Of a DNA stretch of 64,000 nucleotides, positions 6,099-49,349 are shown piece after piece (position 1 is the first letter of the stretch; each line of letters opens with the position of its first letter). The DNA lies in assembly GCA_963816185.1 (NCBI GenBank), contig CAWFJJ010000006.1, positions 1,326 through 65,325 on the forward strand, in the 5' to 3' direction. The notes beneath the pieces are model-generated. The model saw only the letters and a program-made list of their open reading frames with translations. It was not told the DNA's origin and did not search any database. The translations under genes were made by a program, and so were the position numbers. The stretch comes from Thermoanaerobaculia bacterium (lineage in GTDB: Bacteria > Acidobacteriota > Thermoanaerobaculia > UBA5066).

Positions 6099-7100
6099 GT
6101 GCAGGCTCTCTTTCGGCAGGAAGTATTCCACGCGGGCAGCCGGGTGTTCCGGTGGGAGGACGTCGTCCTGGCGGCGGAGCTGTGGGGCGACTGGAAGCTC
6201 ATCGAAGAGAGGGCGCTTCAGAATCTCGCCGTCCTCGCCTCCGTGGACTCCGGAACCGAATCCGCGGTGCCGGAAGATGAGATCGACAAGGCGGCGGACG
6301 ACTTCCGGTACGAGCGGGATCTCATCACGGCCGAGGAGCTCGAGCGTTGGCTCTCACGCTGGCGCCTCGACGCCGAGACCTGGCTCGGCTGGATTCACGC
6401 CACCCTGCTCCGCGACCGTCTGCCGGGCATCGTCTTTTCAGGCCGGCCGGAAGCAGAGGTTCGTCAGGTCGAGCTGGCCGTCCTCGCCGAGGCCGTCTGC
6501 TCCGGGGAACTGGAGCGTCTCGGTCGGCAGCTCGCCGCCCGCGCCGCGATCGCAGAGCGGGAGAGAGAACGAGAGAAGGTCGCCGACGACGAGGATCGAA
6601 ACTCGGCCGGGTCGCTCGCCGAGCGTCGGGAAGTCCTCGCCCGGCTGGAGCTTTCGTACGAGCGGTTCCGTGAGGAGGTGCTCACTCCGGACGCCCTGGC
6701 TGCGCGGGTCAAGGCGCGCCTTACCGATTGGACCCGAATCAGCTGCAGCGTCCTGAGGCTTTCGGCCGAAGACGCCGCGCGCGAGGCGGCGATGGCGGTG
6801 CGCCAGGAGGGAGTCGACCTCGGAACGCTGGCGGAGGAGATCGGCGAGGCCACGGAAGACGGCGTGGAGTTTCTCGAGGAGGCGGAGCCGGAGGTCCGTG
6901 ACATCCTTCTCTCGGCGAGGCCGGGAGAGCTCGTCGGGCCGGTGAACGTCGGCGACGAGTTCGTGCTCGTCTCTGTCCGCGCGAAGACCCCGCCGGCGCC
7001 CGACGATCCCGAGGTGCTCGAGAGAGCCGAGTCGAGCCTCCTGGAAGGGCTCGTCGCACGCGAGGTCGACAACAGGATCACGTGGACATGGAAGCCGTGA
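6099..7100 (+). CDS. hypothetical accessory protein of the exporter operon (parvulin/SurA-like C-terminal tail?)
   Basis: Downstream part of ORF 5634..7100. The upstream part is antisense to the NRDE gene and is discarded. GTG 6099 has GAGAGG upstream, but the start is uncertain. The C-terminus ARPGELVGPVNVGDEFVLVSVRAK resembles the end of PpiC-type PPIase domains. The 3' end overlaps the exporter start by ~19 nt. Confidence 0.45.
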   Translation: MQALFRQEVFHAGSRVFRWEDVVLAAELWGDWKLIEERALQNLAVLASVDSGTESAVPEDEIDKAADDFRYERDLITAEELERWLSRWRLDAETWLGWIHATLLRDRLPGIVFSGRPEAEVRQVELAVLAEAVCSGELERLGRQLAARAAIAEREREREKVADDEDRNSAGSLAERREVLARLELSYERFREEVLTPDALAARVKARLTDWTRISCSVLRLSAEDAAREAAMAVRQEGVDLGTLAEEIGEATEDGVEFLEEAEPEVRDILLSARPGELVGPVNVGDEFVLVSVRAKTPPAPDDPEVLERAESSLLEGLVAREVDNRITWTWKP

Positions 7101-10100
7101 CGAGCAAGGCGAGCTCGGCCGCCGCATCGGAGATCGAGGCGGCCCGGATCTTCCTCGACGACCTGCCGCTCCTGAAGTTCCTCTCGCCCGCGTCGCGCGC
7201 CGCCGTGACCGCGAAGTTCGTTCCCGTCGCCTTTCCCTTCGGCGCCGTCATTCTCCGCGAGGGCGACCCCGCCGACGCCTTCTTCGTCGTCGTCGCCGGG
7301 AAAGCGCGGGCGGTGAAGACGGGGGAACAGGGCGAGGAGGTTTCGCTTGGCGTACTTCGGCCCGGAGACAGCTTCGGCGAGATGGGTCTTCTGGATCCTT
7401 CAGCAAAGCGGCAGGCCACCGTACGCGCCTCGAGCGCGGCGACGGTCCTCCGGCTCGACCGGAACGCCTTCGACGCGCTTCTTTCCGGTGATCCGGAGAT
7501 CCGGACCTGCCTGGAGCTCCACGTCAGGTACCGGAGCCTCCAGAACCTCTTCCGTCTCTACACTCCTTTTTCCACCCTTCCGCCGTCCGTCCTCGCCGGG
7601 CTCCTCCACCGGTTCGAGACGATCTCCGTCGCCGCCGGTGAGGCCGTCTTTCGACAGGGGGATGGCGAGGGGCCTCTCTTCGTCGTCGAGGAAGGGCGGC
7701 TTCGCGTCTTCACCGAAGACGATGGGCACCGGCGAAACATCGCTTATCTGCGAAAAGGCGACGTCTTCGGAGAGATCTCGGCCTTCACGGGGGAACCGAG
7801 AAAGGCCACGGTCGAGGCTGTCACGCCCTGCCGGCTCCTGAGCCTTCACCCGAGCGCCTTCCGGGCGGTCACGGACGCTCACCCGGAATTTCGCGCGGCC
7901 ATCGGACGACGTATCGCCCAGTACGACTATCGAAAAGAGGCCAGGGTGCCGCTCGACTTCGCCGACGAGCTCCTGCCCGCGGAGGCGCAGGTGGAGGAGG
8001 TGGGACCCGACCAGATCGACGAGGACGCCGATCGTCCGCCGGACGAATCTTCAGCGGAGGGATCCGCCGCTCCCTTCGCGACGGAAGACGGTCGGTTCGT
8101 CAAGGGGCCTCGGCGGATCCGCCGCTTTCGCTTCGTCCGGCAGATCGACGAAATGGACTGCGGCGCGGCCTCCCTCGCGATGGTCTGCCGCCACTTCGGC
8201 CGCGCGGTGAGCCTCGCGCGGATCCGGCAGCTCCTCTTCACGTCGACTGACGGCACCAGCCTCCGGGCGGTCTGCCGCGGTGCGGAGGAGCTGGGGCTCG
8301 CCGCGCGCTCCGTCAAGGCCTCGGCGAGGCACCTGGACCAGATGCCGCTCCCCGCGATCCTGCACTGGGGCGGCAACCACTGGGTCGTCCTTTACGACGT
8401 GAGCCCGACGGAGGCTCGCGTGGCCGACCCGGGGGTCGGGCTCAGGCGCCTTCCCCGCGCGGAGGTCGAGAAGGAGTGGACCGGCTACGCCGCCCTCTTC
8501 GACTACACGGAGGCGTTCGAGAAGGCTCCGGTGGGGCGCTCCAGCTTCGCCTGGCTCACCCGGTTCTTCCGGCCGCACGCGGGCGTCCTCGCGAAGGCGG
8601 CCGGCCTCGCCCTGATCGTCAGCGTCCTGCAGATGGTCCTCCCGGTCTTCAGCCAGGTCATCGTCGACCGGGTTCTCGTCGAGCGCGACGAGGGGCTGCT
8701 CCGGATCCTCCTTTTCGGGATGGGAGGCGTCCTCGTCTTCTCGACTCTCGCGATGGTCCTGCAGCGATATCTCCTGAGCTTCGCCGCGGTCCGGATCGAC
8801 GCCTCGACGCTCGACTTCGTCACGCGGCGCCTCCTGTCGCTTCCGATGTCCTACTTCTCGACGCGGAAGACAGGCGACATCCAGCGCCGCCTCATGGGCC
8901 TCCGGCAGGTGCGAGAGCTCCTCGTCCAGTACGGGGTCTCCTCGCTGACCGCCCTCTCGCAGCTCTCCGCGGTCCTGATCCTGATGTTCGTCTACAGCCC
9001 CCTCCTCGCGGGCGTCTTTCTCGCGACCGTCCCCCTCTACGCCCTTCTCATGCGGTACTCGAGGCGCCGGCTGCGTCCCGTCTTCGACACGCTCGAGGAG
9101 GCGTTCGGAAAGTATTCCGCCCAGCAGATCGACACCATCAAGGGGATCGAGACCGTCAAGTCGCTCGGGGCCGAAGGCTCCCTCCGTCAGCTGATGCTGG
9201 AGAGGTTCCTCGGCCTCGCCCGAAAGCAGTTCCGCGCCGACTTCACGGTCATGACCTACGAAGGCGCCGTCCAGGCCGTGAGCTTCCTCTCGACCGCCCT
9301 CTTCCTCTGGGCGGGGGCCGTCCAGGTGATGCGCGGGTCGCTCACCATCGGCGGGCTCGTCGCGTTCAACACCCTCGTCGCCCTCGCGAACGCCCCGATC
9401 GGGATCCTGCTCGCGACCTGGGACCACCTCCAGTACGGAACGGTTCTCCTCGACCGCCTGAACGACGTCTTCGAGCAGAAGCCCGAGCAGGGCGACGACC
9501 GGTCCCAGCTTCTCCCGGTCCGGACGCTCGCGGGAAAGGTGTCGCTCCGAAACGTCGGCTTCCGATTCGGCGGGCCCGAGTCGCCGTTGATCCTCGACGG
9601 CCTGACGTTCGACGTGGACCCGGGAAAGATGGTGGCGATCGTCGGCCGGAGCGGCTCCGGCAAGACGACCCTCGCCAAGCTCCTCTCCGGCCTCATGGAG
9701 CCGACCGAAGGATCGATTCTTTTCGACGGAGCGGACCTCAAGACGCTGAATTACCGGGACCTCAGGCGCCGCGTCGGCTTCGTCCTCCAGGAGAACTACC
9801 TCTTCGACGAGACGATCGCCCGGAACATCGCCTTCGGCGACGGCGAGCCCGACGTGGACCGGGTCCTTTGGGCCGCCCGGGTCGCGAGCGCCCACGAGTT
9901 CGTCGAGAGGTTTCCGCTCGGCTACGACACCCGGGTCGGCGAGTCGGGCCTCGCCCTCTCCGGCGGGCAGAAGCAGCGCGTCGCCATCGCGCGGGCCGTC
10001 TACAACCGTCCCCCGGTCCTGATCTTCGACGAGGCGACCAGCTCTCTCGACACCGAATCGGAGCGGGCGGTCAAGGAGAACCTCGACCGCCTTCTGGAGG

Positions 10101-10264
10101 GCCGGACGTCGTTCGTGATCGCCCACAGGCTCAGCACCATCCGCGACGCGGACGTCATCCTCGTCCTGGAGAAGGGACGTCTCGTCGAGCACGGGACTCA
10201 CGACGAGCTGATGGACCGCCAGGGGCTCTACTACTACCTGTCGAGCCAGCAGCTCGGGATCTAG
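7082..10264 (+). CDS. peptidase C39 domain-containing ABC exporter with two N-terminal cyclic-nucleotide-binding-like domains
   Basis: 1060-aa ORF. Two CAP/cNMP-type segments (..GDSFGEMGLL.. and ..GDVFGEISAF..). C39 catalytic motifs QIDEMDCGAASLAMV (Cys) and GGNHWVVLYDV (His). ABC membrane domain, Walker A GRSGSGKTT, signature LSGGQKQR, Walker B VLIFDEATS. Confidence 0.9.
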   Translation: MDMEAVTSKASSAAASEIEAARIFLDDLPLLKFLSPASRAAVTAKFVPVAFPFGAVILREGDPADAFFVVVAGKARAVKTGEQGEEVSLGVLRPGDSFGEMGLLDPSAKRQATVRASSAATVLRLDRNAFDALLSGDPEIRTCLELHVRYRSLQNLFRLYTPFSTLPPSVLAGLLHRFETISVAAGEAVFRQGDGEGPLFVVEEGRLRVFTEDDGHRRNIAYLRKGDVFGEISAFTGEPRKATVEAVTPCRLLSLHPSAFRAVTDAHPEFRAAIGRRIAQYDYRKEARVPLDFADELLPAEAQVEEVGPDQIDEDADRPPDESSAEGSAAPFATEDGRFVKGPRRIRRFRFVRQIDEMDCGAASLAMVCRHFGRAVSLARIRQLLFTSTDGTSLRAVCRGAEELGLAARSVKASARHLDQMPLPAILHWGGNHWVVLYDVSPTEARVADPGVGLRRLPRAEVEKEWTGYAALFDYTEAFEKAPVGRSSFAWLTRFFRPHAGVLAKAAGLALIVSVLQMVLPVFSQVIVDRVLVERDEGLLRILLFGMGGVLVFSTLAMVLQRYLLSFAAVRIDASTLDFVTRRLLSLPMSYFSTRKTGDIQRRLMGLRQVRELLVQYGVSSLTALSQLSAVLILMFVYSPLLAGVFLATVPLYALLMRYSRRRLRPVFDTLEEAFGKYSAQQIDTIKGIETVKSLGAEGSLRQLMLERFLGLARKQFRADFTVMTYEGAVQAVSFLSTALFLWAGAVQVMRGSLTIGGLVAFNTLVALANAPIGILLATWDHLQYGTVLLDRLNDVFEQKPEQGDDRSQLLPVRTLAGKVSLRNVGFRFGGPESPLILDGLTFDVDPGKMVAIVGRSGSGKTTLAKLLSGLMEPTEGSILFDGADLKTLNYRDLRRRVGFVLQENYLFDETIARNIAFGDGEPDVDRVLWAARVASAHEFVERFPLGYDTRVGESGLALSGGQKQRVAIARAVYNRPPVLIFDEATSSLDTESERAVKENLDRLLEGRTSFVIAHRLSTIRDADVILVLEKGRLVEHGTHDELMDRQGLYYYLSSQQLGI

Positions 10265-11532: not shown

Positions 11533-12438
11533 ATGCGCCGCTGCCTCGACGTGGCGCGTGCCGCCTGCCGGACCGAGCTTCCGCTCCTCCTCCTCGGCGA
11601 GTCGGGGACCGGAAAGACGCTCCTCGCCCAGGCGATCCACAACTCCTCTCCGAGAGCGTCGGCTCCCTTCGTCTCCTTCAACGCCGCGGCCCTCTCCGAC
11701 ACGCTCCTCGACAGCCAGCTCTTCGGCCACGAGAAAGGGGCGTTCACGGACGCCAAGCAGCCGCTGCGCGGCAAGTTCGAGGTCGCCGACGGCGGGACCC
11801 TCTTCATCGACGAGATCGCCGACATGAGCCCGCTCGCCCAGGCGAAGATCCTCCGGGCGGTCGAATACGGAGAGTTCGAGAGGCTCGGATCCGAGCGGCT
11901 CCGCAAGGCGGACGTCCGCCTGATCTCGGCCACCCGCCACCCGCTGGAGCGGTTTGCGAACACCGAGCAGTTCCGGAGCGATCTCTTCTACAGGCTCGCG
12001 GGGCTCACCGTCACCCTTCCCCCGCTGCGCGAGCGGCCGAACGACCTGCGCGAGCTCGTCGCGGCCTCGATCCATCGCGCCGCTCACGCACAGGGACGGA
12101 CCATCTCCGGTCTCTCCCAGAAGGCCGCCGATGCCCTTTTCTCGTATCACTGGCCCGGGAATCTCCGGGAGCTCGACCTCGTCATCCACGCCGCAGTCGC
12201 GATGACCGAGGGCTCGGTGATCGAGGAATTTGCGATCCTGGTCCGAAACAACGGCGGGCCCGGGACGTCCCCTTCCGCCGCGCGGCCGGTCCCTGCGGCC
12301 GACCTGAGCCTCCGGGCCGTCGAGCGAGACCACATTCACCGGGTCCTCCGGGAGCTCGGGGGGAACAAGACGAGGGCCGCCAGGACCCTCGGCATCTCGC
12401 GCTCCCGCCTCGAGAGGAAGCTCAACGACGCGAAGTGA
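11533..12438 (+). CDS. sigma-54-dependent transcriptional activator (bEBP) lacking an N-terminal sensory domain
   Basis: 301-aa ORF. AAA+ core GESGTGKT, GAFTDA (GAFTGA variant), LFIDEIADM, WPGNLRELD. C-terminal Fis-type HTH NKTRAARTLGISRSRLERKL. Only ~22 in-frame codons separate the HlyD stop from the first ATG, so there is no room for a receiver, GAF or PAS module. Confidence 0.85.
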   Translation: MRRCLDVARAACRTELPLLLLGESGTGKTLLAQAIHNSSPRASAPFVSFNAAALSDTLLDSQLFGHEKGAFTDAKQPLRGKFEVADGGTLFIDEIADMSPLAQAKILRAVEYGEFERLGSERLRKADVRLISATRHPLERFANTEQFRSDLFYRLAGLTVTLPPLRERPNDLRELVAASIHRAAHAQGRTISGLSQKAADALFSYHWPGNLRELDLVIHAAVAMTEGSVIEEFAILVRNNGGPGTSPSAARPVPAADLSLRAVERDHIHRVLRELGGNKTRAARTLGISRSRLERKLNDAK

Positions 12439-12573: not shown

Positions 12574-12589
12574 TGGAACGGTCCTTGCT
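12574..12589 (+). promoter_or_regulatory. sigma-54 (-24/-12) promoter heading the peptide-gene array
   Basis: TGGAAC-GGTCC-TTGCT. GG (12575-76) and GC (12587-88) have the canonical 12-nt register of TGGCAC-N5-TTGC. Located 135 nt downstream of the bEBP stop and 42 nt upstream of the first leader-type RBS and start. Confidence 0.6.
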
Positions 12590-12630: not shown

Positions 12631-12772
12631 GTGAACCACGAAGAAAACCCCCTCGGGCTTCTACAAGAAGGCGGTGAAGGACCTCGACGTCAAGCCCGCC
12701 AAGGTGACGTCCGCCCGGGCGTCCAGTCTCGAACCGGCCGTCAGCGACCGCGAAGAAGGCGAAGAACCGATC
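12631..12772 (+). pseudogene. decayed copy of the Lys-rich leader peptide gene
   Basis: Preceded by the family RBS (GAAAGGAGAAACGAC-GTG). The nucleotide sequence aligns to the leader consensus only with several small indels. The motif KDLDVKPAK is readable only in a shifted frame and both GG motifs are lost. Confidence 0.5.
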
Positions 12773-12913
12773 ATGAAGAAGACCCCGAAGAAAAGCGCCC
12801 GGACAAGCTTCTCAAAGAAGACGCGGTCAAGGACCTCGCACCAAGCTCCGCCAAGGGCAGGCGGCACGAGGCGGCACGGGAAGGTCTGTGACAGGGGTGG
12901 ATCGAGCATCTGA
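12773..12913 (+). pseudogene. divergent or decayed leader-peptide gene copy (46-codon ORF still open)
   Basis: MKKTPKKSARTSFSKKTRSRTSHQAPPRAGGTRRHGKVCDRGGSSI. The N-terminus (MKKTPKK) and C-terminus (..RGG-SSI) match the family, but the central AVKDLxxKPAKGG block is encoded out of frame (DAVKDLAPSSAKG in another frame). Confidence 0.4.
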
Positions 12914-12968
12914 CGAGCGACCTCCAGCTCGGCAAGGTTCTCGTCCGAGAGATTCCTGTCACTGCGAC

Positions 12969-13190
12969 ATGAAGACGGGCCGCCGCAAGACGAAGCCGTC
13001 GCCGGGGTTCGTCCCCCTCAGGGACCTCGTCCCCCGAAACGACCCCAAGGGCGGGTCGGCCGGGAAGACGGTATTCGGTGAACGTCCCCCGATCGCTCGA
13101 GACAGAAGAAAAGCACCCCTTCAAGGATGTTCCGGCCGAACGAAGGCAGAAGCCGGGTCACGACCGAAACAGGAAGAAAGGAGAAACGCC
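12969..13190 (+). repeat. R-element copy 1 (Arg-rich ORF MKTGRRKTKPSPGFVPLRDLVPRNDPKGGSAGKTVFGERPP.., fused in frame to precursor A by a 1-nt difference)
   Basis: ~225-nt element shared with 5 other copies. It ends in the conserved box CCGGCCGAACGAAGGCAGAAGCCGGGTCACGACCGAAACAGGAAGAAAGGAGAAACG plus the start codon of the next gene. Confidence 0.7.
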
Positions 13191-13376
13191 ATGAAGAAGA
13201 CCACGAAGAAAAGCTCCTCGAAGGCCTCTCACAAGAGAGCCCGCAAAAACCTCGACGTCACGCCTGCCAAGGGCGGGACCGTCCGGGGAGGCGGCAAGGC
13301 GGGCTCGGGCAGGACTACTGTCAGCGACCTCCAGATCAGCAAAGTTGTCGACAAGAGTTCAGCCGTGCTGTTCTGA
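13191..13376 (+). CDS. precursor peptide A: MKKTTKKSSSKASHKRARKNLDVTPAKGGTVRGG / GKAGSGRTTVSDLQISKVVDKSSAVLF
   Basis: ATG preceded by AAAGGAGAAACGCC. 61 codons. Family leader plus a 27-residue C-terminal part. Confidence 0.8.
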   Translation: MKKTTKKSSSKASHKRARKNLDVTPAKGGTVRGGGKAGSGRTTVSDLQISKVVDKSSAVLF

Positions 13377-13399
13377 GAGCGACCTGCTCGAAGACTGGC

Positions 13400-14542
13400 A
13401 TGGTACGGCTTCCGACGATCCCGGACACTCCCGCCAAAGGCCCGGCTCCGCTCCATGCACGCTGGCTCGAAGAGGCCCTCGGGGGAAAGATCCCCTCCGA
13501 GCCCCACGCCACGTGCGAGAGCTGCCCCATGCTCCCTGTGCCCGGCGGCGCGGACGGGGCCCGGGACGCGGTCTTCTTCAATCCCAAGACGAAGTGCTGC
13601 ACCTACCTGCCGAGGCTTCACAACTTTCTCGTCGGCGCGATCCTGGCAGACGAGGCGCCCGACATGGCCGAAGGGCAGGCGCGCGTTCTCGAGAGGATCG
13701 GAAAAAGGGTCGGCGTGACGCCGCTTTGGGTCGGCGCCGGTGGAGCGTACAGCCTCATGTACGACCACGGTGACGGGGTCTTCGGCCACAGCGAGGCGAT
13801 GCGCTGCCCCTACTACCTCGAGGATCGGATCGGCGGCGGCTGCGGGATATGGCGTCACCGCAATTCCATCTGCATGACCTGGTTCTGCAAGCACGAGCGC
13901 GGGGCCCGGGCGCTGCGGTTCTGGGACTCGGCCAAAGAGCTGCTGATGGCCGTCGAGGAGAACCTCGCGATCCACTGCCTCGTCACCCTCGGTTTCGACG
14001 ACGCGGCGCTCCGGACCAATTTCCCGTTCAAGGTTCCGAAGTCTCAGCGGACGGAAACCGTGAAGGGGGACGAGCTCGACGGCACGGTGAGCCCCGAGAG
14101 GTACAAGGCCCTCTGGGGAAGCTGGGCTGGCCGCGAGAAGGAGCTCTACCTCCTAAGCGACGGGATCGTCCGGAACATGGAGTGGAAGGACGTCGAGCGA
14201 ATCGGCGGCGCGAACGTCGCTCTCCTCTCGCAGCTCGCACGCGCTGCCTACCAGACGGCAGCCAGCGACGCTCTTCCGGAGCGCCTCGAAATCGGCAACC
14301 TCAACGTCATCGGCGCCGGGCGTAAGACCGTGCGCCTCGGCACCTACAGCCCATACGACCCCATCGATGCTCCTGCCGCGCTTCTTCCGGCATTGCCCGC
14401 CTTCGACGGCTCCAGGGTACCCGACGCCCTCCGCGCGATCGAGAAGGATCATGGGCTCGTCCTGAGCCCCGAGCTCGTCCGAAAGCTCGTCGACTACGGC
14501 CTGCTCCGCGCGGTGACCGCCCCCGAAGACGAGCGAGTCTAA
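13400..14542 (+). CDS. Cys-rich protein, paralogue 1 (YkgJ/FliB-like CxxC...CC metal-cluster motifs); candidate peptide-tailoring enzyme
   Basis: 380 codons from ATG 13400 within ORF 13127..14542, 23 nt after precursor A. Conserved Cys pattern C-ESC...KCCTYLPRL...MRCPYYLEDRIGGGCGIWRHRNSICMTWFCKHE. The CPYYLEDRxxxxC...RxxxC block resembles the PF03692 (CxxCxxCC / flagellin lysine-N-methylase FliB) family as I remember it. Confidence 0.7.
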   Translation: MVRLPTIPDTPAKGPAPLHARWLEEALGGKIPSEPHATCESCPMLPVPGGADGARDAVFFNPKTKCCTYLPRLHNFLVGAILADEAPDMAEGQARVLERIGKRVGVTPLWVGAGGAYSLMYDHGDGVFGHSEAMRCPYYLEDRIGGGCGIWRHRNSICMTWFCKHERGARALRFWDSAKELLMAVEENLAIHCLVTLGFDDAALRTNFPFKVPKSQRTETVKGDELDGTVSPERYKALWGSWAGREKELYLLSDGIVRNMEWKDVERIGGANVALLSQLARAAYQTAASDALPERLEIGNLNVIGAGRKTVRLGTYSPYDPIDAPAALLPALPAFDGSRVPDALRAIEKDHGLVLSPELVRKLVDYGLLRAVTAPEDERV

Positions 14543-14605
14543 CCAGAACTCGATGAGAAGGCCGAAGCCGGGTCATGAACAAATCAGGGCAAAAGGAGAA
14601 ACGAC

Positions 14606-14737
14606 GTGAAGAAGACCACGAAGAAAAGCCCCTCGAAGGCATCTCACAAGAAGGCGGTCAAGAACCTCGAGCTCAAAACGGTTAAGAGCGGGACGGTCCG
14701 AGGAGGAGTACCCGCGGTCCAAAAGTCAGGGAGATAG
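14606..14737 (+). CDS. precursor peptide B: MKKTTKKSPSKASHKKAVKNLELKTVKSGTVRGG / VPAVQKSGR
   Basis: GTG start 6 nt after AAAGGAGAAACGAC. 43 codons. TAG stop at 14735. Confidence 0.8.
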   Translation: MKKTTKKSPSKASHKKAVKNLELKTVKSGTVRGGVPAVQKSGR

Positions 14738-14747
14738 GAGGAGCAAC

Positions 14748-14885
14748 ATGAAAAAGATCGCGAAGAAGGGCGCCCCGAAGGCCTCTCACAAGAAATCGGT
14801 CAAGGACCTCGAGATCAAGCCCGCCAAGGGCGGGACGGGCGAGACGGTCCGTGGCGGCAAGATGATCGACAAGATCCACATCTGA
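14748..14885 (+). CDS. precursor peptide C: MKKIAKKGAPKASHKKSVKDLEIKPAKGGTGETVRGG / KMIDKIHI
   Basis: ATG after GGAGGAGCAAC. 45 codons. Leader carries the 3-residue insert GET. Confidence 0.8.
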   Translation: MKKIAKKGAPKASHKKSVKDLEIKPAKGGTGETVRGGKMIDKIHI

Positions 14886-14921
14886 CGAGCGCCGCCTGCT
14901 GCAAGGATCGCCCGACCTTCG

Positions 14922-15145
14922 ATGATGAAGACAGGCCGCCGAGGACCAAGCCGTCGCCGGGGGTTCGTCCTCCTCAGAGATCTCATCCCTCGAAACGACC
15001 CCAAAGGCGGGTCGGCCGGGAAAACGGTATTCGGTGAACGTCCCACGGTCCTCGAGACAGAAGAAAAGCACCCCCATGAGGATGTTCCGGCCGAACGAAG
15101 GCAGACGCCGGGTCACGGCCGAAACAGGAGGAAAGGAGACACGAT
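14922..15145 (+). repeat. R-element copy 2 (intact 75-codon ORF 14922..15149: MMKTGRRGPSRRRGFVLLRDLIPRNDPKGGSAGKTVFGERPTVLETEEKH...)
   Basis: Same element as 12969, 15772, 16505, 18386 and 18945. The ORF stop overlaps the precursor D start (ATGA). Confidence 0.7.
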
Positions 15146-15286
15146 ATGAAGAAGACCACGAAGAAGACCCCGAAGGCCTCGCACAAGAAGGCGGTCAGGA
15201 ACCTCGACGTCAAGCCCGCGAAGGGTGGAACGGTCCGTGGCGGAATACATGGTGGCTGGGACCAGCTCGCGAACAAGAAAGTTTGA
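15146..15286 (+). CDS. precursor peptide D: MKKTTKKTPKASHKKAVRNLDVKPAKGGTVRGG / IHGGWDQLANKKV
   Basis: ATG after AAAGGAGACACGAT. 46 codons. Confidence 0.8.
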   Translation: MKKTTKKTPKASHKKAVRNLDVKPAKGGTVRGGIHGGWDQLANKKV

Positions 15287-15373
15287 GTTCCTGGAACACC
15301 CTTCTTAGAAAGTCCGGTCGAACGAAGGTAGAAGCCGGGTCACGACCGAAACAGGAAGTAAGGAGAAGACGTC

Positions 15374-15520
15374 ATGAACAACCCCAAGAAGAAGAGCGCC
15401 TCGAAGGCCTCCCACAAGAGGAAGGTGAAGGACCTCGAGATCAAGCCCGCCAAAGGAGGGACCGTCCGTGGAGGCAAGGTCTTTCCCAAGGTGACCACGG
15501 GTTTGCTCGACAAGTACTAG
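15374..15520 (+). CDS. precursor peptide E: MNNPKKKSASKASHKRKVKDLEIKPAKGGTVRGG / KVFPKVTTGLLDKY
   Basis: ATG after GTAAGGAGAAGACGTC. 48 codons. Confidence 0.8.
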   Translation: MNNPKKKSASKASHKRKVKDLEIKPAKGGTVRGGKVFPKVTTGLLDKY

Positions 15521-15596
15521 CGAGGCTGAAGTTACCCCTTTCGTCGCGCGACCTCGCGCTCGGTCACGACCGAAACAGGAAGAAGGGAGACACGAC

Positions 15597-15734
15597 ATGA
15601 AGAAGAACGCGAAGAAGAACCCTCCGAAGGGTTCCCGAAAGAACGCAATCAAGGACCTCGAGATCAAGCCCGCCAAGGGCGGGACGGACGGGACGGTCCG
15701 TGGCGGCAAGTTCGAGACCAAGATCCACATCTGA
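15597..15734 (+). CDS. precursor peptide F: MKKNAKKNPPKGSRKNAIKDLEIKPAKGGTDGTVRGG / KFETKIHI
   Basis: ATG after AGAAGGGAGACACGAC. 45 codons. Leader insert DGT. Confidence 0.8.
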   Translation: MKKNAKKNPPKGSRKNAIKDLEIKPAKGGTDGTVRGGKFETKIHI

Positions 15735-15771
15735 CGAGGGCCGCTTGCCGTAAGGGCCGATCGGCCCCTCG

Positions 15772-15996
15772 ATGATGAAGACAGTCCGCCGAGGACCAAG
15801 CCTTCGCCAGGGATTCGTTCCCCTCAGGGACCTCGTGCCCTGAAACGACCCCAAGGGGGGGTCCGCTGGGAAGACGGTATTCGGCGAACGTCCCCCGGTT
15901 TCCGTGACAGAAATGACACAGCGCTTCCAGGATGTTCCGGCCGCACGAAGGCAGAAGCCGGGTCACGGTCGAAACAGTAAGTAAGGAGAAGACGTC
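15772..15996 (+). repeat. R-element copy 3 (ORF interrupted by TGA at 15841: MMKTVRRGPSLRQGFVPLRDLVP*)
   Basis: Nucleotide-level homologue of the other R copies, but with an in-frame stop inside the otherwise conserved PRNDPKGG block. Confidence 0.65.
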
Positions 15997-16128
15997 ATGA
16001 ACAACCCCAAGAAGAAGAGCGCCTCGAAGGCTTCCCACAAGAAGACGGTCAAGAACCTCGAGGTCACGCCCGTCAAGGGCGGGAAGGTCCGTGGGGGCTT
16101 CCCGACGCCATGGAAAAACAAGGTCTAA
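15997..16128 (+). CDS. precursor peptide G: MNNPKKKSASKASHKKTVKNLEVTPVKGGKVRGG / FPTPWKNKV
   Basis: ATG after GTAAGGAGAAGACGTC. 43 codons. Confidence 0.8.
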   Translation: MNNPKKKSASKASHKKTVKNLEVTPVKGGKVRGGFPTPWKNKV

Positions 16129-16174
16129 TGCCGCCCGAAATGACGCGCGAATCCAGAAGAAAGGAGAAACGAAC

Positions 16175-16306
16175 ATGAAAAAGACCTCGAAGAAGAGCGC
16201 CTCGAAGGCATCTCACAAGAAGGCGGTCAAGGACCTCGAGGTCAAGCACGCCAAGAGCGGGACGGTTCGCGGAGGACTGCCCCCCGGTCCACCAACCTAC
16301 AAATGA
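16175..16306 (+). CDS. precursor peptide H: MKKTSKKSASKASHKKAVKDLEVKHAKSGTVRGG / LPPGPPTYK
   Basis: ATG after GAAAGGAGAAACGAAC. 43 codons (3' part of ORF 16091..16306). Confidence 0.8.
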   Translation: MKKTSKKSASKASHKKAVKDLEVKHAKSGTVRGGLPPGPPTYK

Positions 16307-16327
16307 GTGGACAAAATGAGAACCGAC

Positions 16328-16453
16328 ATGAAGAAGACCACGAAGAAAGACCCTTCGAAGGCCTCTAAGAAGAAGGCGGTCAAAAACCTCGAGGTCAAGC
16401 CCGCGAGGGGTGGAACGGTCCGCGGAGGCTGGGACCCGACCAAAGCGCGATAG
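16328..16453 (+). CDS. precursor peptide I: MKKTTKKDPSKASKKKAVKNLEVKPARGGTVRGG / WDPTKAR
   Basis: 41 codons. No obvious SD. An in-frame ATG at 16316 would add MRTD. Starts 22 nt after precursor H. Confidence 0.7.
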   Translation: MKKTTKKDPSKASKKKAVKNLEVKPARGGTVRGGWDPTKAR

Positions 16454-16504
16454 CGTCGAAACGAGTCACTCGAAACGACCCCTTCTCCGAAAGTGAACCG
16501 CGAG

Positions 16505-16725
16505 ATGAAGACAGGCCGCGGTAAGACAAAGCCCTCGCCGGGGTTCGTCCCCCTCAGGGACCTCATCCCCCGAAACGATCCCAAGGGCGGGTCGGCCGGG
16601 AAGACGGTATTCGGCGAGCGTCCCCCGGTCCTCGAGGCAGAAGAAAAGCACCCCTTCAAGGATGTTCCGGCCGAACGAAGGCAAAAGCCGGGTCACGACC
16701 GAAACAGGAAGAGAGGAGAGACGAC
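16505..16725 (+). repeat. R-element copy 4 (ORF 16493/16505..16729: MKTGRGKTKPSPGFVPLRDLIPRNDPKGGSAGKTVFGERPPVLEAEEKH...)
   Basis: Belongs with copy 1 to a subclass that differs from copies 2, 5 and 6 by a compensated pair of 1-nt indels near the 5' end. Preceded by two TCGAAACGA boxes (16456, 16470). Confidence 0.7.
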
Positions 16726-16914
16726 ATGAAGAAGAACACGAAGAAGACAGCCTCCAAGGCAAAGGGGCCCAAGGCGACGAAGAATCTCGACGTCAAGCCC
16801 GCCAAGGGCGCGAAGGTCCGTGGTGGAACTGTAAACAAGGGGTGGATCGAAGTTTCATCCTTCAGTTTTAATGCGGAACCCACCGTCAGTGTGACCGCGA
16901 AGAAGCCGTCCTGA
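16726..16914 (+). CDS. precursor peptide J: MKKNTKKTASKAKGPKATKNLDVKPAKGAKVRGG / TVNKGWIEVSSFSFNAEPTVSVTAKKPS
   Basis: 62-aa ORF in the track. RBS GAGAGGAGAGACGAC. Stop overlaps the GT41 start (TGATG). Confidence 0.8.
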   Translation: MKKNTKKTASKAKGPKATKNLDVKPAKGAKVRGGTVNKGWIEVSSFSFNAEPTVSVTAKKPS

Positions 16915-18386
16915 TGAGCACCGGCTGGCCGAAGGGCTGCCGCATGCTCGCGGCGGGCAAGTATGCGAGCGGCCTCGCGGCCTTCGAACCGGCCGTCCGG
17001 GCGAGTCCGGACTCTGCGGCCGCACGATTCCACCTCGCCCGGGCGAGCTTCGCCCTAGGGGAGGTCGAGAGGGCGACCCGGCAGCTTCGGGCGGCACTCC
17101 GGATCCGCACGGATATCCGAGCTCTGCGGTTCCTGGCCACGATCGCCCCGTTCGACCCGCGCCTCGACCACGCGGCGATCCTGAAGGTCCGCCGCGCGCT
17201 GGCCGCTGCGGTTCGCGCTCGAACCGTCGCGCCCGCCAGGGCGATCGTCGTCGGGAGCCCGGCCAGGAAAGTGCTCAAGGTTGGCTACGTCTCGTCTTTC
17301 TTCGACAAGGACAACTGGATGAAGCCGGTGTGGGGGCTGATCGATCACCACGACGCCAAGAGGGTGGAGATCCACCTTTTTGCCGACGTGCCGCGCGTTT
17401 CTGCGGTGCGTCGGCGGGCGCGTGCGAGCGCGGCGCACGTCCACGACATCTCGCGCCTTGACAACGATGTGGCCGCGCGGCTGATCGCCCGGACGGGGCT
17501 CGACGTCCTCGTGGATCTCAATCAGTACAGCCGGGTCGGCCGGATGCCGCTTTTTTCGACCAGGCTGGCGCCGGTCGTCGTCGCGTGGTTCAACATCTTC
17601 GGGACCTCGGGAATGCCGGTTTTCGACGCGCTGATCGGCGATCGATGGCTCGTCCGCGACGTCGAGAAGCCTTGGTACCTCGAAAAGATCGTGAAACTCC
17701 CGTTCTCGTCGCTGACTTTCGCGGTGGACTATCCGGTCCCTGACGTCGGGCCGCCGCCTTTCTTGCGCAACGGCTTCGTCACGTTCGGAAGTCTTTCGTC
17801 GCTGTACAAGCTCAACGACGGCGTCGTCGGCACCTGGGCCGACATTCTGAAGCGGAGCCCGGGAAGCCGTCTTCTCCTGGGCAATGCGGATCTGGGAGAC
17901 CCCGGCAACCGAGCGCACACTCTCGAGCGATTCACCGCGCGCGGGATCGAGCCCGCGCGCGTCACGTTGCTCGGGCCCGACGAGCACTACGAGTTTCTCC
18001 GAAACTACGACGCGATTGACCTCGCTCTCGACACGTTCCCCTACAACGGAGGCACGACGACCACCGAGGCGATCTGGCAAGGAGTCCCGGTCGTCGCGTT
18101 CTTGGGGGACCGGTGGATCTCGCGTACCAGCGCCTCCCTGCTGGAAAACGCCGGTCTTGAGGGCTTCGTCAGCCGGGACGTCCGCGGTTATGTCGAAACG
18201 GCCGTCCGGTGGGGGTCGGGAGCAAAGGCGGAAGAACGGAGAGAGCTCCGCCGCACGATGAGGAAACGCCTGAAAGCCTCACCCGTCACCGACTGCGCGA
18301 GCCTCGCGCGCTGCATCGAGGACGCTTACGTCCAATTGTGGGGCGCGAGGACTCGCTCCGCTCTCCCTCAGCGGATGACAGCGTGA
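16914..18386 (+). CDS. TPR-containing GT41-family glycosyltransferase (OGT/SPINDLY-like)
   Basis: 490-aa ORF. N-terminal TPR-like helices. C-terminal block VTFGSLSSLYKLND...LLLG...IDLALDTFPYNGGTTTTEAIWQGVPVVAF matches the GT41 catalytic-domain signature (DTFPYxGxTTxxxALWxGVPVV). Confidence 0.85.
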   Translation: MSTGWPKGCRMLAAGKYASGLAAFEPAVRASPDSAAARFHLARASFALGEVERATRQLRAALRIRTDIRALRFLATIAPFDPRLDHAAILKVRRALAAAVRARTVAPARAIVVGSPARKVLKVGYVSSFFDKDNWMKPVWGLIDHHDAKRVEIHLFADVPRVSAVRRRARASAAHVHDISRLDNDVAARLIARTGLDVLVDLNQYSRVGRMPLFSTRLAPVVVAWFNIFGTSGMPVFDALIGDRWLVRDVEKPWYLEKIVKLPFSSLTFAVDYPVPDVGPPPFLRNGFVTFGSLSSLYKLNDGVVGTWADILKRSPGSRLLLGNADLGDPGNRAHTLERFTARGIEPARVTLLGPDEHYEFLRNYDAIDLALDTFPYNGGTTTTEAIWQGVPVVAFLGDRWISRTSASLLENAGLEGFVSRDVRGYVETAVRWGSGAKAEERRELRRTMRKRLKASPVTDCASLARCIEDAYVQLWGARTRSALPQRMTA

Positions 18387-18606
18387 TGAAGACAGGCCGT
18401 CGAGGACCAAGCCGTCGCCGCGGGTTCGTCCTCCTCAGAGATCTCGTCCCCCGAAACGATCCCAAGGGCGGATCGGCCGGGAAGACGGTATTCAGCGAGC
18501 GTCCCCCGGTCCTCGAGACAGAAGATAAGCATCACCTTAAAGATGTTCCGGCCGAACGAAGGCAAAAGCCGGGTCACGACCGAAACAGGAAGAAAGGAGA
18601 AACGAC
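18386..18606 (+). repeat. R-element copy 5 (ORF 18386..18610: MKTGRRGPSRRRGFVLLRDLVPRNDPKGGSAGKTVFSERPPVLETEDKHHLKD...)
   Basis: The ATG overlaps the GT41 stop (TGATG). The stop overlaps the precursor K start (GTGA). Confidence 0.7.
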
Positions 18607-18741
18607 GTGAAGAAGATCACGAAGAAAGGTCCCTCGAAGGCCCCCAAGAAGAGGACGACGAAGAATCTCGACGTCAAGCCCGCCAAGGGCGGGACGATCC
18701 GCGGGGGGAGCCTCCCCCGACAGTGGAAGTGGATCGAGTGA
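18607..18741 (+). CDS. precursor peptide K: MKKITKKGPSKAPKKRTTKNLDVKPAKGGTIRGG / SLPRQWKWIE
   Basis: GTG after AAAGGAGAAACGAC. 44 codons. Confidence 0.8.
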   Translation: MKKITKKGPSKAPKKRTTKNLDVKPAKGGTIRGGSLPRQWKWIE

Positions 18742-18776
18742 CGCCGGCCGACGGCCAGAAGGAAAGGAGAAACGCC

Positions 18777-18908
18777 ATGAAAAAGACCACGAAGAAGAAC
18801 CCTCCGAAGGTGTATCGAAAGAAGGCAATCAAGGACCTCGAGATCAAGCCCGCCAAGGGCGGGACGGGCGAGACAGTCCGTGGCGGCAAGGATAAGATCC
18901 ACATCTGA
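18777..18908 (+). CDS. precursor peptide L: MKKTTKKNPPKVYRKKAIKDLEIKPAKGGTGETVRGG / KDKIHI
   Basis: ATG after GAAAGGAGAAACGCC. 43 codons. Leader insert GET as in precursor C. Confidence 0.8.
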   Translation: MKKTTKKNPPKVYRKKAIKDLEIKPAKGGTGETVRGGKDKIHI

Positions 18909-18944
18909 CGAGAGCCGCTTCCTGCAAGGACCGCCCGATCCTCG

Positions 18945-19168
18945 ATGATGAAGACAGGCCGCCGAGGACCAAGCCGTCGCCGGGGGTTCGTCCTCCTCAG
19001 AGATCTCGTCCCCCGAAACGATCCCAAGGGCGGGTCGGCCGGGAAGACGGTATTCGGCGAGCGTCCCCCGGTCCTCGAGACAGAAGATAAGCATCACCTT
19101 AGAGATGTTCCGGCCGAACGAAGGCAGAAGCCGGGTCACGACCGAAACAGGAAGAGAGGAGAAACGAC
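18945..19168 (+). repeat. R-element copy 6 (ORF 18945..19172: MMKTGRRGPSRRRGFVLLRDLVPRNDPKGGSAGKTVFGERPPVLETEDKHHLRD...)
   Basis: Near-identical to copies 2 and 5. Most differences from them fall on third codon positions of this frame (manual comparison). Confidence 0.7.
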
Positions 19169-19312
19169 GTGAAGAAGATCACGAAGAAAGGTCCCTCGAA
19201 GGCTTCCAAGAAGAGGACGACGAAGAATCTCGACGTCAAGCCCGCCAAGGGCGCGACGGTTCGTGGCGGAGTGCATGGCGGTTGGGACCAGATCGCGAAC
19301 AAGAAGATTTGA
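19169..19312 (+). CDS. precursor peptide M: MKKITKKGPSKASKKRTTKNLDVKPAKGATVRGG / VHGGWDQIANKKI
   Basis: GTG after AGAGGAGAAACGAC. 47 codons. Confidence 0.8.
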   Translation: MKKITKKGPSKASKKRTTKNLDVKPAKGATVRGGVHGGWDQIANKKI

Positions 19313-19393
19313 GTTCCTGGAACACCCTTCATAGGTCTGGTCGAACCACTACAAGCCGGGTTACGACCGAAACAGGAAGAGAGGAGACACGAC

Positions 19394-19537
19394 ATGAAGA
19401 AGAACACGAAGAAGACAGCCTCCAAGGCAAAGGGGCCCAAGGCGACGAAGAACCTAGAGGTCAAACCCGCCAAGGGGGCGTCGGTCCGTGGCGGAGTGCA
19501 TGGTGGCTGGGACCAGGTCGGGAACAAGAAGTATTAG
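19394..19537 (+). CDS. precursor peptide N: MKKNTKKTASKAKGPKATKNLEVKPAKGASVRGG / VHGGWDQVGNKKY
   Basis: ATG after AGAGAGGAGACACGAC. 47 codons. The stop abuts the Cys-rich paralogue 2 ORF. Confidence 0.8.
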   Translation: MKKNTKKTASKAKGPKATKNLEVKPAKGASVRGGVHGGWDQVGNKKY

Positions 19538-20782
19538 TTGCCCTCTGATCAAGTGACCTCTCCGAAGACCCGCGCGGTCCGGCTCCCGTCGATCACCGAT
19601 GCTCCCGCCAGGGGCCTGGCACCGCTTCATGCGCGCTGGCTCGAGGCGGCGCTCGGGGGCAAGATTCCTTCCGAGCCACACGCGGCGTGCGACAACTGCG
19701 CGATGCTGCCGGTGTCCGGAGGCGCGGATGAAGAGCGCGGCGCAGTCTTCTTCAACCCCAGGACGAAGTGCTGCACTTACCTGCCGAGACTTCACAACTT
19801 TCTCGTCGGGGCGATCCTCGCAGACGAAGCGACCGATATGGCCGAAGGGCGTGCCCGCGTCCTGGAGAGGATCGGGAAGAAGGTCGGCGTGACGCCGCTC
19901 TGGGTCGGCGCCGGCGGCGCGTACAGCCTCGTGTACGACCACGGAGACGGGGTCTTCGGCCACAGCGAGGCGATGCGCTGCCCCTACTATCTCGAAGACC
20001 GGATCGACGGCGGCTGCGGGGTGTGGCGTCACCGCAATTCCATCTGCATGACCTGGTTCTGCAAGCATGAGCGCGGGGCCCCGGCGCTGCGGTTCTGGGA
20101 CTCGGCCAAAGAGCTGCTGATGGCCGTCGAGGAGAATCTCGCGATCCATTGCCTCGTCACTCTGGGTTTCGACGACGCGGCGCTCCGGACCAATTTCCCG
20201 TTCAAGGTTCCGAAATCTCAGCGGTCGGAAACCGTGAAGGGGGACGAGCTCGACGGCACGGTGAGCCCGGAACGATACAAGGCTCTCTGGGGGAGCTGGA
20301 CGGGCCGCGAGGAGGAGCTCTACCGCCAATGCGACGCGATCGTCCGAGACATCGAGTGGAAGGACGTCGAGCGCATCGGCGGCGCGAGCGTCGCACTCCT
20401 GTCGCAGCTCGCGCGCGCGGCCTATCAGGCGGTGATCCGTGACGACCTTCCCGAGCGGCTCGAGATCGGCAATCTCAGCGTCATCGGCACGGGGCGCGGG
20501 ACCTTGCGCCTGGCCACGTACAGCGCCTACGACCCCATCGACGCCCCGGCCGCGCTTCTCCCCGTGCTTCCCGCGTTCGACGGCTCCAGGGTGCCCGACG
20601 CCCTTCGCGCGATCGAAAGGGACCATGGGCTCGTCCTGAGCCCCGAGCTCGTCCGAAAGCTCGTCGACTACGGCCTGCTCCGCGCGGTGGACGCCCCCGA
20701 AGACGAGCAAGTCTGGCGAAACTCCATGAAAAGGCGGAAGCCGGGTCATCGCCAAAACAGGATGAAAGGAGAAACGACATGA
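19538..20782 (+). CDS. Cys-rich protein, paralogue 2 (YkgJ/FliB-like motifs)
   Basis: 414-aa ORF. Start is TTG 19538 or GTG 19553. About 47 substitutions over ~378 aligned residues versus paralogue 1 (manual count), and all 9 Cys of paralogue 1 are conserved. It lacks the stop used by paralogue 1 and reads 22 codons further, ending in an ATGA overlap with precursor O. Confidence 0.7.
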   Translation: MPSDQVTSPKTRAVRLPSITDAPARGLAPLHARWLEAALGGKIPSEPHAACDNCAMLPVSGGADEERGAVFFNPRTKCCTYLPRLHNFLVGAILADEATDMAEGRARVLERIGKKVGVTPLWVGAGGAYSLVYDHGDGVFGHSEAMRCPYYLEDRIDGGCGVWRHRNSICMTWFCKHERGAPALRFWDSAKELLMAVEENLAIHCLVTLGFDDAALRTNFPFKVPKSQRSETVKGDELDGTVSPERYKALWGSWTGREEELYRQCDAIVRDIEWKDVERIGGASVALLSQLARAAYQAVIRDDLPERLEIGNLSVIGTGRGTLRLATYSAYDPIDAPAALLPVLPAFDGSRVPDALRAIERDHGLVLSPELVRKLVDYGLLRAVDAPEDEQVWRNSMKRRKPGHRQNRMKGETT

Positions 20783-20910
20783 AGAAGATCACGAAGAAAG
20801 GTTCCTCAAAGGCTTCCAAGAAGAAGGCGGTCAGGAACCTCGACGTCAAGCCTGCGAAGGGCGGGACGGTCCGTGGAGGGGCAACCAGACTCGACAAGTG
20901 GCCCGGGTAG
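20779..20910 (+). CDS. precursor peptide O: MKKITKKGSSKASKKKAVRNLDVKPAKGGTVRGG / ATRLDKWPG
   Basis: ATG after GAAAGGAGAAACGAC. 43 codons. Confidence 0.8.
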   Translation: MKKITKKGSSKASKKKAVRNLDVKPAKGGTVRGGATRLDKWPG

Positions 20911-20934
20911 ACGCTTGGCGGCCGGCAGCACGCG

Positions 20935-21149
20935 AGGCCGGCTACGCGGTACTTCCGCGCGAAGAGCGTGAGCCGCGCGGAGAGGTGGAGAAGCTGAGCG
21001 AGCTGCGTCGCACGATGAGGATACGGTTGCGGGCTTCGCCGGTCACCGATTGCCCAAGGCTCGCGCGCCGCATGGACGATGTCTACCTCCGGCTATCGGG
21101 CGCGAGCCCTCGTCGGAAACGACCCCGGGCCGCGCTCCCGCGTAATTGA
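20935..21149 (+). pseudogene. C-terminal remnant of a second GT41 glycosyltransferase gene
   Basis: ..ELRRTMRIRLRASPVTDCPRLARRMDDVYLRL.. aligns to the last ~45 residues of the intact GT41 protein (ELRRTMRKRLKASPVTDCASLARCIEDAYVQLW). Nothing corresponding to the TPR or catalytic parts precedes it. Confidence 0.7.
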
Positions 21150-49184: not shown

Positions 49185-49349
49185 CCCCGGGGATTGACTT
49201 TTGCCGCGCCCAGCACCACGTTGAGACGAAGACGATGTTGAGGCGTTGACCTGCCGGGCCCTTCGTGGCCACCCATGCCCGTCAGCGAGCCACTAGTGAA
49301 ACCGGCAACGTCTCGTTGCCGGTTCTTGCTTTCTCCGACGGTTTGAGGG
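49185..49349 (+). other. conserved non-coding element, copy 1 (candidate sRNA or 5' leader with terminator-like hairpin)
   Basis: ~165 nt, almost identical to 63427..63593. Contains TTGACT/TTGAGA/TTGAGG/TTGACC boxes, the stem CTGCCGGGC/GCCCGTCAG with a variable loop, and the hairpin ACCGGCAAC-gtctc-GTTGCCGGT (49301-49323) followed by TCTTGCTTTCT. Lies ~100 nt upstream of the S8 peptidase start. Confidence 0.5.

Follow-up and report, generated by a model that had tools for sequence, protein, structure and literature searches.

What is the conserved sequence that stands in front of most of the small precursor genes in a peptide gene array of a Thermoanaerobaculia bacterium, and what is it conserved for? 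The array lies in a stretch of 64,000 nucleotides (nt) of contig CAWFJJ010000006.1 (positions 1,326 to 65,325), which was analysed as a whole and is called the window below. A preliminary description listed ten array starts preceded by a conserved box that adjoins the ribosome-binding site and contains a small hairpin. It proposed that the box is either a ribonuclease processing or stability element that turns one long sigma-54 transcript into many small mRNAs, or just a duplication footprint. We found that the box in its full form is the last ~65 nt of a small open reading frame (ORF), named D1 here, and that its sequence pattern points to purifying selection at the nucleotide level. There is about an even chance that the box is a translational-coupling junction between D1 and the precursor gene combined with an extended, purine-rich ribosome-binding region.

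Pattern searches allowing at most three mismatches detected eight matches to the 3' part of the box (GCCGGGTCACGACCGAAACAGGAAGA) and seven to its hairpin part (CCGGYCGAACGAAGGYARAAGCCGG), with zero expected in shuffled sequences for either part, and every match to either half is located on the + strand at 13.1-19.4 kb. A profile search (nhmmer, built from the copies) detected 11 boxes in the window and bore out that the box is conserved and adjacent to the ribosome-binding site. All 11 run up to the A/GTG with which a precursor gene starts, and 11 of the 15 intact precursor starts are covered; the other four intact precursors retain the Shine-Dalgarno (SD) region only. No box was found outside precursor starts in the 64-kb window. 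Eight boxes are full length (13126, 15081, 15311, 15931, 16661, 18542, 19104 and 19334) and three comprise the 3' part only (14557, 15561 and 20731). The preliminary description was thus right that the repeat is real and that all copies lie near precursor starts, with coordinates that were 1-3 nt off; it missed the copy at 15561, and the copy that it listed as partial at 19344 is actually full length (19334) with a diverged loop.

In six of eight cases, the full box forms the 3' end of a longer repeat of ~225 nt, which had been overlooked. This repeat opens with ATGAAGACAGG (repeat starts at 12969, 14925, 15775, 16505, 18386 and 18948), and its conservation sets in exactly at an ATG. It corresponds to the small ORF D1, 73-76 codons long, which reads M(M)KTGRR..GFVPLRDLVPRNDPKGGSAGKTVFGERPPVLETE..DVPAERRQKPGHDRNRKKGETT (also written MKTGRR..GFVPLRDLVPRNDPKGGSAGKTVFGERPP...DVPAERRQKPGHDRNRKKGETT) and whose TGA stop overlaps the A/GTG of the next precursor as xTGA. 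All six copies are on the + strand, and four of them are intact. The second copy (14922..15149, 75 amino acids (aa), full box 15081-15145) overlaps the ATG of the precursor at 15146, and the fourth (16505..16729, 74 aa, full box 16661-16725) overlaps the ATG of the precursor at 16726. The fifth (18386..18610, 74 aa, full box 18542-18606) overlaps the GTG of the precursor at 18607, while its own ATG overlaps the stop of a TPR/GT41 gene (16914-18386), and the sixth (18945..19172, 75 aa, full box 19104-19168) overlaps the GTG of the precursor at 19169. The first copy (12969..13190, full box 13126-13190, nhmmer match of 72 bits) is frame-shifted: located within an ORF at 12888-13376, it carries a 1-nt insertion after GERPP that places it in the frame of the precursor at 13191, and it is either a fusion with this precursor or a decayed copy. 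The third copy (15775..15996, box 15931-15996, ahead of the precursor at 15997) is decayed; its frame is interrupted by a TGA at codon 23 and by a TAA that falls within the box.

A metagenome scan with a D1 alignment, a protein search and contig look-ups provided 12, then 17 intact D1 units from at least 12 loci, that is, 136 pairs for the comparison of identity by codon position. Judged by its codon pattern, D1 is a genuine protein-coding gene. For codon positions 1/2/3, the 17 intact copies have pairwise identities of.76/.72/.57 in the N-terminus,.88/.91/.67 in the centre and.70/.75/.53 in the linker, and the variable columns of the central part fall 10/7/23 on the three positions. The window copies alone show the same kind of distribution (5/1/15 over positions 44-125). 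Lengths of intact copies differ by multiples of three (221/224/227/230 nt), while a 1-nt indel or stops disrupt the two dead copies, and gene callers annotate D1 on public contigs. Antisense MTRLLPSFGRNI.. ORFs were rejected as genes: they are codon-aligned with D1 and the variable sites would be their first positions, which makes them shadows of D1. D1 was also considered as a paralogue of the precursor leader, and this was rejected; LRDLVPRNDPKGG and VKNLDVKPAKGG aligned weakly in a profile-profile comparison (hhalign, E 0.098, probability 0.6%), a resemblance that is only suggestive and does not establish homology.

The protein search detected 36 D1 homologues (P0001-P0036), in clusters of Acidobacteriota; no contig location was found for one of them (P0016). 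The motif L..DL.PR..PKGG....K.VFGERP is invariant in the homologues, even across lineages with otherwise unrelated DNA, whereas the basic tails are unrelated to one another outside the close family. Members range from 53 to 123 aa and match no Pfam or NCBIfam model; D1 is thus an uncharacterised small-protein family. The homologue clusters encode a sigma-54 activator and multi-copy precursors with a double-glycine (GG) leader, as well as YcaO and LanB (L012, Holophagales), a C39-ABC transporter and LanC (L022) or GT41 (L017 and L020). TGG-N8-TTGC sites are located 36-60 nt 5' of the D1 start in L004, L012 and L023, and by these sigma-54-type sites D1 would be the promoter-proximal ORF in these three loci.

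The codon periodicity of D1 ends at the box. Over the 136 pairs, identity at the three codon positions within it is.87/.83/.85 for the 5' half and.87/.75/.80 for the 3' half; third-position identity increases from 0.53-0.67 outside to 0.80-0.85 inside, and box third positions are therefore ~0.2-0.3 more conserved than the adjacent coding sequence. A separate nucleotide alignment of 12 units gave 0.87-0.90 for the box and 0.65-0.66 for the linker and third positions, and the identity of between-genome pairs is about that of all pairs. The loss of periodicity together with conserved third positions indicates that the box is selected as a nucleotide sequence and is not a mere duplication scar.

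The same data bear on whether the box is conserved solely as the code for an important C-terminal tail of D1 (DVPAERRQKPGHDRNRKKGETT). In all intact copies the reading frame runs on through the box without a stop. The close family retains ERRQKPGH almost without change, a related RKQKP tail is found in Holophagales homologues, and three box changes in L001b are synonymous and break the hairpin; these observations favour this explanation. However, variation in the box shows no third-position excess, and this third-position constraint argues that the box is not conserved merely as the tail of D1. By eye, the 5' half has ~9 non-synonymous versus 5 synonymous changes; the 3' half is equally conserved without D1, and the tails of distant homologues, as noted, are unrelated. 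We consider this explanation very unlikely.

A pure duplication footprint, kept alike by recent copying or gene conversion and functioning as an ordinary SD only, fares no better. Full boxes always lie within larger repeats such as D1-D3, the 5' break points differ among partial copies, conservation decays with distance from the start (34 starts) and the window copies are mutually 93-96% identical, all in favour of a footprint. Between loci and genomes, however, the box retains an identity of 0.80-0.87 at every codon position, against 0.52-0.67 for the linker and third positions. Since it is conserved between genomes, gene conversion within a genome does not explain it, and a D1 protein identity of 64-83% among public contigs argues against near-identical strains. 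With the box far above neighbouring synonymous sites across 17 units from at least 12 loci, the second proposal of the preliminary description is insufficient, and we rate it the least probable of the explanations considered.

The 3' end of the box carries the signals expected of a start site. The xTGA overlap with the next precursor start is present in 17/17 intact D1 units, and a 4-nt overlap between the called D1 and the next small gene was found in L015-L020 and in the distant L023, where it is present although the box sequence is not conserved. The SD AAGGAGA is placed 7-8 nt before the precursor start, inside the D1 ORF. Across 34 distinct precursor starts, the information content increases gradually from -45 onwards, with its maximum at the SD and the ATG. 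The 3' tract of the box is 77% purine, and when the box is folded by itself most predictions leave this tract unpaired.

The two halves of the box differ in their association with D1. Over all loci, the 5' half is present in 19/19 D1-linked copies versus 2/13 D1-less copies, while the 3' half is equally conserved where D1 is absent. The 3' half thus behaves, in this comparison, as the extended ribosome-binding region of the precursor, with or without D1. Two of the D1-less copies that lack the 5' arm, L004:6413 and L001:9782, read ATGTTC followed directly by GGGTCACGACC, and no box was found in locus L002. Five boxes in the window, all on the + strand, are not linked to a D1 ORF. The full box at 15311..15373 (5' arm CCGGT), ahead of the precursor at 15374, follows a linker remnant (CACCCTTCTTAGAAAG) and is what remains of the 3' end of a former D1; it agrees with the consensus at 62/66 positions despite stop codons in the old D1 frame. 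The full-length but diverged box at 19334..19393, ahead of the precursor at 19394, has a replaced loop (CGAACCACTACAA) and the arms CTGGT/GCCGG. Two partial boxes lack the 5' arm: one at 14557..14605 (25 bits in the nhmmer search), which extends from GAAGGCCGAAGCCGGGTCA to the start codon and is placed between a Cys-rich gene (13400-14542) and the precursor at 14606, an arrangement also seen at L001:11158, and one at 20731..20778 (36 bits), between the second Cys-rich gene (19538-20700) and the precursor at 20779. The box at 15561..15596, ahead of the precursor at 15597, consists of the 3' half only (CGGTCACGACC...) and has an unrelated GCGCG-ACCT-CGCGC hairpin just 5' of it.

Several other roles for the junction were tried and rejected. 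Precursors that are longer at the N-terminus and include the box would need an in-frame start 5' of the annotated ones, and there is none. For a -1 frameshift from D1 into the precursor frame, 16/17 D1 ORFs have no slippery heptamer in their last 40 codons; the exception is a non-conserved CCCGGGA in L018. A sigma-54 promoter inside the box (cGGccgaacgaagGCa) was rejected, as no box contains TGG-N8-TTGC and only GG-N10-GC is in common. Finally, no terminator-like site was detected on the + strand at any box, which speaks against an intrinsic terminator or attenuator.

On the coupling reading, ribosomes would translate D1 on through the box, traverse the SD and terminate at the UGA that overlaps the AUG/GUG of the precursor (xUGA). 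The precursor would then be translated by termination-reinitiation, or by initiation on mRNA held open by D1 translation. The box would be kept as nucleotides, being a purine-rich and largely unpaired region for ribosome binding, and its 3' half (GGGTCACGACCGAAACAGGAAGAAAGGAGAAACGAC) would be retained even after D1 loss. The 5' half (the CCGGC...GCCGG repeat) would travel with D1 and be dispensable for most D1-less precursors. The unit of D1, box and precursor may originally have been the promoter-proximal start of a sigma-54 operon that was duplicated six times in the array, with partial copies produced by duplications or deletions with varied 5' break points. We infer that coupling and ribosome loading are the selected function.

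Some observations weigh against this account. Coupling is deduced solely from the anatomy of the junction, and part of the conserved overlap comes free, as any in-frame ATGAAG/GTGAAG start gives a stop-start overlap. Some of the intact ORFs were found by protein searches, so that the set favours in-frame indels. When more flanking sequence is folded, the SD of some copies is predicted to pair in part with the coding sequence 3' of it. The footprint of a ribosome normally falls short of -65, so ribosome binding poorly explains why synonymous sites in the 5' half (-65 to -38) are so strongly conserved, and the distribution of this half among D1-linked and D1-less copies suggests that it has another function, tied to D1. 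The 5' half may contain a processing site or a site bound by a regulator.

The first of these possibilities is close to the original proposal. An endoribonuclease would cut the sigma-54 transcript at or next to the boxes, and the 5' hairpin would protect the resulting mini-mRNA, raising precursor over enzyme mRNA. The setting is compatible with this: the box is constrained at synonymous sites, including the 5' half beyond the ribosome footprint, and, in line with the one long sigma-54 transcript of the preliminary description, one sigma-54-type promoter-like site (TGGAACggtccTTGC, 12574) precedes an array without + strand terminators. The proposed stem CCGGC/GCCGG (S1) can indeed form, with 5 bp, a 15-nt loop and -6.5 kcal/mol, and the CCGGT copy retains a G-U pair. 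We tested S1 together with the stems S2 (CGGYCG/CGRYCG) and S3 (GGCC/GGGTC) on 14, then 22 distinct copies. S1 is pairable in 94.5% of cells and most changes are C-to-U or give G-U; an S1 or S2 hairpin is predicted in every full copy, and the copy at 15561 bears its unrelated GC hairpin at a like position.

The comparative test on which the hairpin had been staked, covariation in a larger alignment, gave a different answer: the 22 distinct copies contain no compensatory change. Zero S1 pairs are changed on both sides, the S1 covariation score is 0.167 versus 0.171 in shuffles, and six stem cells are broken (in L001b, L011, L015, L017 and L021). No covariation was seen for S3 and the other two stems in either set of copies, and the RNAalifold covariation term is 0.16 kcal/mol. 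S2 is paired in 84.8% of cells, with a majority C.A mismatch at its centre where all four C/T x A/G combinations occur. S1 and S2 are mutually exclusive, and the predicted winner varies among copies: S1 has a predicted probability of ~0.6-0.7 in canonical copies, while copies with T-A or C-G at the S2 centre, including the box at 15311, give ~1 for S2 and 0 for S1, and the competing stem is predicted to win in nine copies. Fold z-scores of seven boxes range from -1.36 to +0.58, and the whole D1 unit was rejected as a structured RNA (z-score +0.53). A rough count of independent stem changes gives ~8 that keep versus 6 that break pairing, a weak sign of a mild enrichment of wobble-compatible transitions that is confounded with common C-to-T changes. 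A scan of the window with Rfam 15 at the gathering threshold found no match at the box and only two c-di-GMP-II-GAG riboswitches elsewhere, and a permissive scan of 18900-19420 gave only chance-level matches (E >= 0.65). The 5' arm is missing in 11/13 D1-less copies over all loci, whose genes are presumably still expressed. The alignment data are compatible with a hairpin but lend it no support, and we regard processing at the boxes as unlikely.

The box may also be an operator, at which an RNA-binding protein or small RNA (the D1 product or another cluster protein?) gates all precursors together. The uniform nucleotide conservation over ~65 nt without codon periodicity, the recurrence of the same sequence ahead of many genes of one regulon, to which it is confined in the window, and the invariant GGA of the SD in a purine-rich single strand are all in line with such a role. 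However, the two-site layout of a CsrA-type target is not present, since the GGA of the SD occurs in 22/22 copies but the upstream GGA (CAGGAAG) is absent in 7/22, and the S1 loop reads GAAGGCA (GGC), without GGA. The analysis pointed to no particular regulator, and neither a CsrA nor an Hfq motif turned up in the window, which for CsrA says little. As for processing, the 5' half is missing in most D1-less copies. We find an operator more doubtful still than a processing site.

A broader scheme would combine several of these elements. D1 would be a leader ORF whose nascent or finished peptide senses the maturation or export machinery, the box would be an RNA operator or processing signal that switches on each cassette or excises a mini-mRNA, and the cassettes would encode leader-tagged fragments of Hcp, the tube protein of the type VI secretion system (T6SS). 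If true, sigma-54-driven peptide arrays would have a regulatory leader of a new kind, and the array might make Hcp-mimicking peptides. We consider this scheme improbable, below either a processing site or an operator taken singly.

The variable precursor cores do look like fragments of Hcp. Such cores are located in the window at 13191-13376, 16726-16914, 15146-15286, 19169-19312 and 19394-19537, and elsewhere at L004:6225-6612, L011:3014-3187 and L001:9819-9956. Single peptides give sub-threshold matches to the Pfam model T6SS_HCP (model positions 2-20, 36-67, 40-70 and 49-78), an artificial concatenation of cores from several loci gives a Pfam E = 1.7e-18, and a similar concatenation matches solved Hcp chains at 1e-12 to 1e-10 over Hcp residues 4-85. 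The sequence VHGGWDQIANKK aligns with an Hcp C-terminus, VSSGWDLTANKA. Hcp mimics and a chopped-up gene are both possibilities for these leader-tagged shards.

The array (13191..20910, + strand) belongs to a region at 12.5-21 kb with 15 intact small precursor-like genes of 41-62 aa each, in which a leader MKKxxKK..KAVKNLDVKPAKGGTVRGG is followed by the variable core. They start at 13191, 14606, 14748, 15146, 15374, 15597, 15997, 16175, 16328, 16726, 18607, 18777, 19169, 19394 and 20779. Scattered between them are two Cys-rich genes of 380 aa, a TPR/GT41 glycosyltransferase gene and a GT41 fragment. The Cys-rich paralogues (coordinates above) have no Pfam or NCBIfam match; both bear CxxC...CC..YLP and C..W.C motifs, and their products are presumed to be the modifying enzymes of the array. 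The nearest public relative is a Thermoanaerobaculia metagenome-assembled genome (MAG), in which the Cys-rich protein is 90% identical. The sole distant homologue of this protein found is from a Bryobacteraceae MAG (39% identity), and a genome scan with it gave one distant locus (L003), which has no array. The TPR/GT41 gene matches Pfam Glyco_transf_41 (3.6e-35). An orphan GT41 C-terminus fragment at 20898-21149 is 72% identical to 18217-18355 and appears to mark the decayed right end of a duplicated block.

Upstream of the array, a gene at 7082..10264 (+ strand) encodes a protein with cNMP-binding, Peptidase_C39 and ABC transporter domains (Pfam cNMP_binding 3e-46, Peptidase_C39 1e-32, ABC_membrane and ABC_tran), presumably the exporter and leader peptidase for the ..VRGG leaders. 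A sigma-54 activator gene is located at 11533-12438 (Pfam Sigma54_activat, E = 2.7e-58). The putative sigma-54-type promoter (TGGAACGGTCCTTGCT, 12574..12589, + strand) is located 3' of the activator gene and 5' of the array, and it is the only match to TGG-N8-TTGC near the array on the + strand. No terminator-like site was found on this strand between array genes. Directly behind the promoter-like site are two precursor-like copies at ~12631 and 12773 (12631-12913) that have decayed by small deletions and frameshifts, so the promoter-proximal genes of the array look like pseudogenes, or assembly errors. A conserved intergenic stretch, GTTCCTGGAACACCCTTC, follows the ..GGWDQxANKKx genes at 15287-15312 and 19313-19338; it holds the palindrome TTCCTGGAA and resembles a -24 element (TGGAAC), without the -12 TTGC. 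The two c-di-GMP-II-GAG riboswitch matches (RF03169, 49-50 bits, above the gathering threshold) are at 49230-49316 and 63472-63558 on the + strand. Literature searches on this cluster type, on precursor-mRNA processing and on Hcp-like leader peptides returned nothing relevant.

These results change how the locus is read. Six copies of a conserved 74-codon gene in the window had previously been taken as untranslated leader. The recurrence of the D1 family in sigma-54-regulated double-glycine peptide clusters of Acidobacteriota is relevant to the mining of precursors or regulatory RNAs, and those who mine such clusters would meet in the box a coding sequence fused to a ribosome-binding region, with a hairpin that lacks comparative support. 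The D1-box-precursor unit offers a directly testable model of how ribosomes are loaded onto numerous tiny genes. The box is an ordinary kind of feature; more unusual leads are the D1 family and the cores that tile Hcp.

Among known systems, double-glycine-leader arrays (class II bacteriocin or lanthipeptide type, with Peptidase_C39 ABC export) resemble the locus in having many small genes with a common leader ending in GG (..VRGG), with a C39-ABC transporter and a dedicated regulator adjoining the array, and related clusters carry LanB, LanC or YcaO. They differ in their enzymes, which here are a TPR/GT41 glycosyltransferase and the unclassified Cys-rich protein, and in the likeness of the cores here to Hcp fragments; the resemblance concerns the genes and not the box. 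The 5' stem-loop stabilisers and processing sites of the ompA 5' untranslated region, pap and puf likewise have a small GC stem 5' of the ribosome-binding site, and this stem recurs between the cistrons of a long transcript that has to yield its products in widely differing quantities. Here, however, the stem has 5-6 bp and a 15-nt loop, shows no covariation, has a rival stem and is optional among copies.

Promoter-proximal leader ORFs that govern or supply translation of the next cistron, such as those of attenuated or arrest-regulated operons, are similar in that the short D1 stands 36-60 nt behind a sigma-54-type site (L004, L012 and L023), the first structural gene comes directly after it and the D1 peptide is conserved. 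In contrast to these systems, no terminator, anti-terminator or SD-sequestering structure was found at D1, no precursor follows D1 in L012 and L022, and D1 is far longer than classical leader peptides and is conserved like a functional protein.

The closest likeness to the coupling reading is with overlapping genes such as trpE-trpD and trpB-trpA and those of many other operons. As in these, the upstream UGA overlaps the downstream AUG/GUG and the SD falls within the upstream gene, here 7-8 nt before the start. This overlap is kept in all 17 intact units and in the distant L023, and coupling is predicted from this anatomy. Both a stop-start overlap with an internal SD and leader ORFs behind promoters are already known, and the locus is another instance of them. 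It differs in two respects that make it unusual: the unit with its upstream 74-codon ORF is copied six times in one array, and ~65 nt are held constant at synonymous sites, beyond the normal need of coupling.

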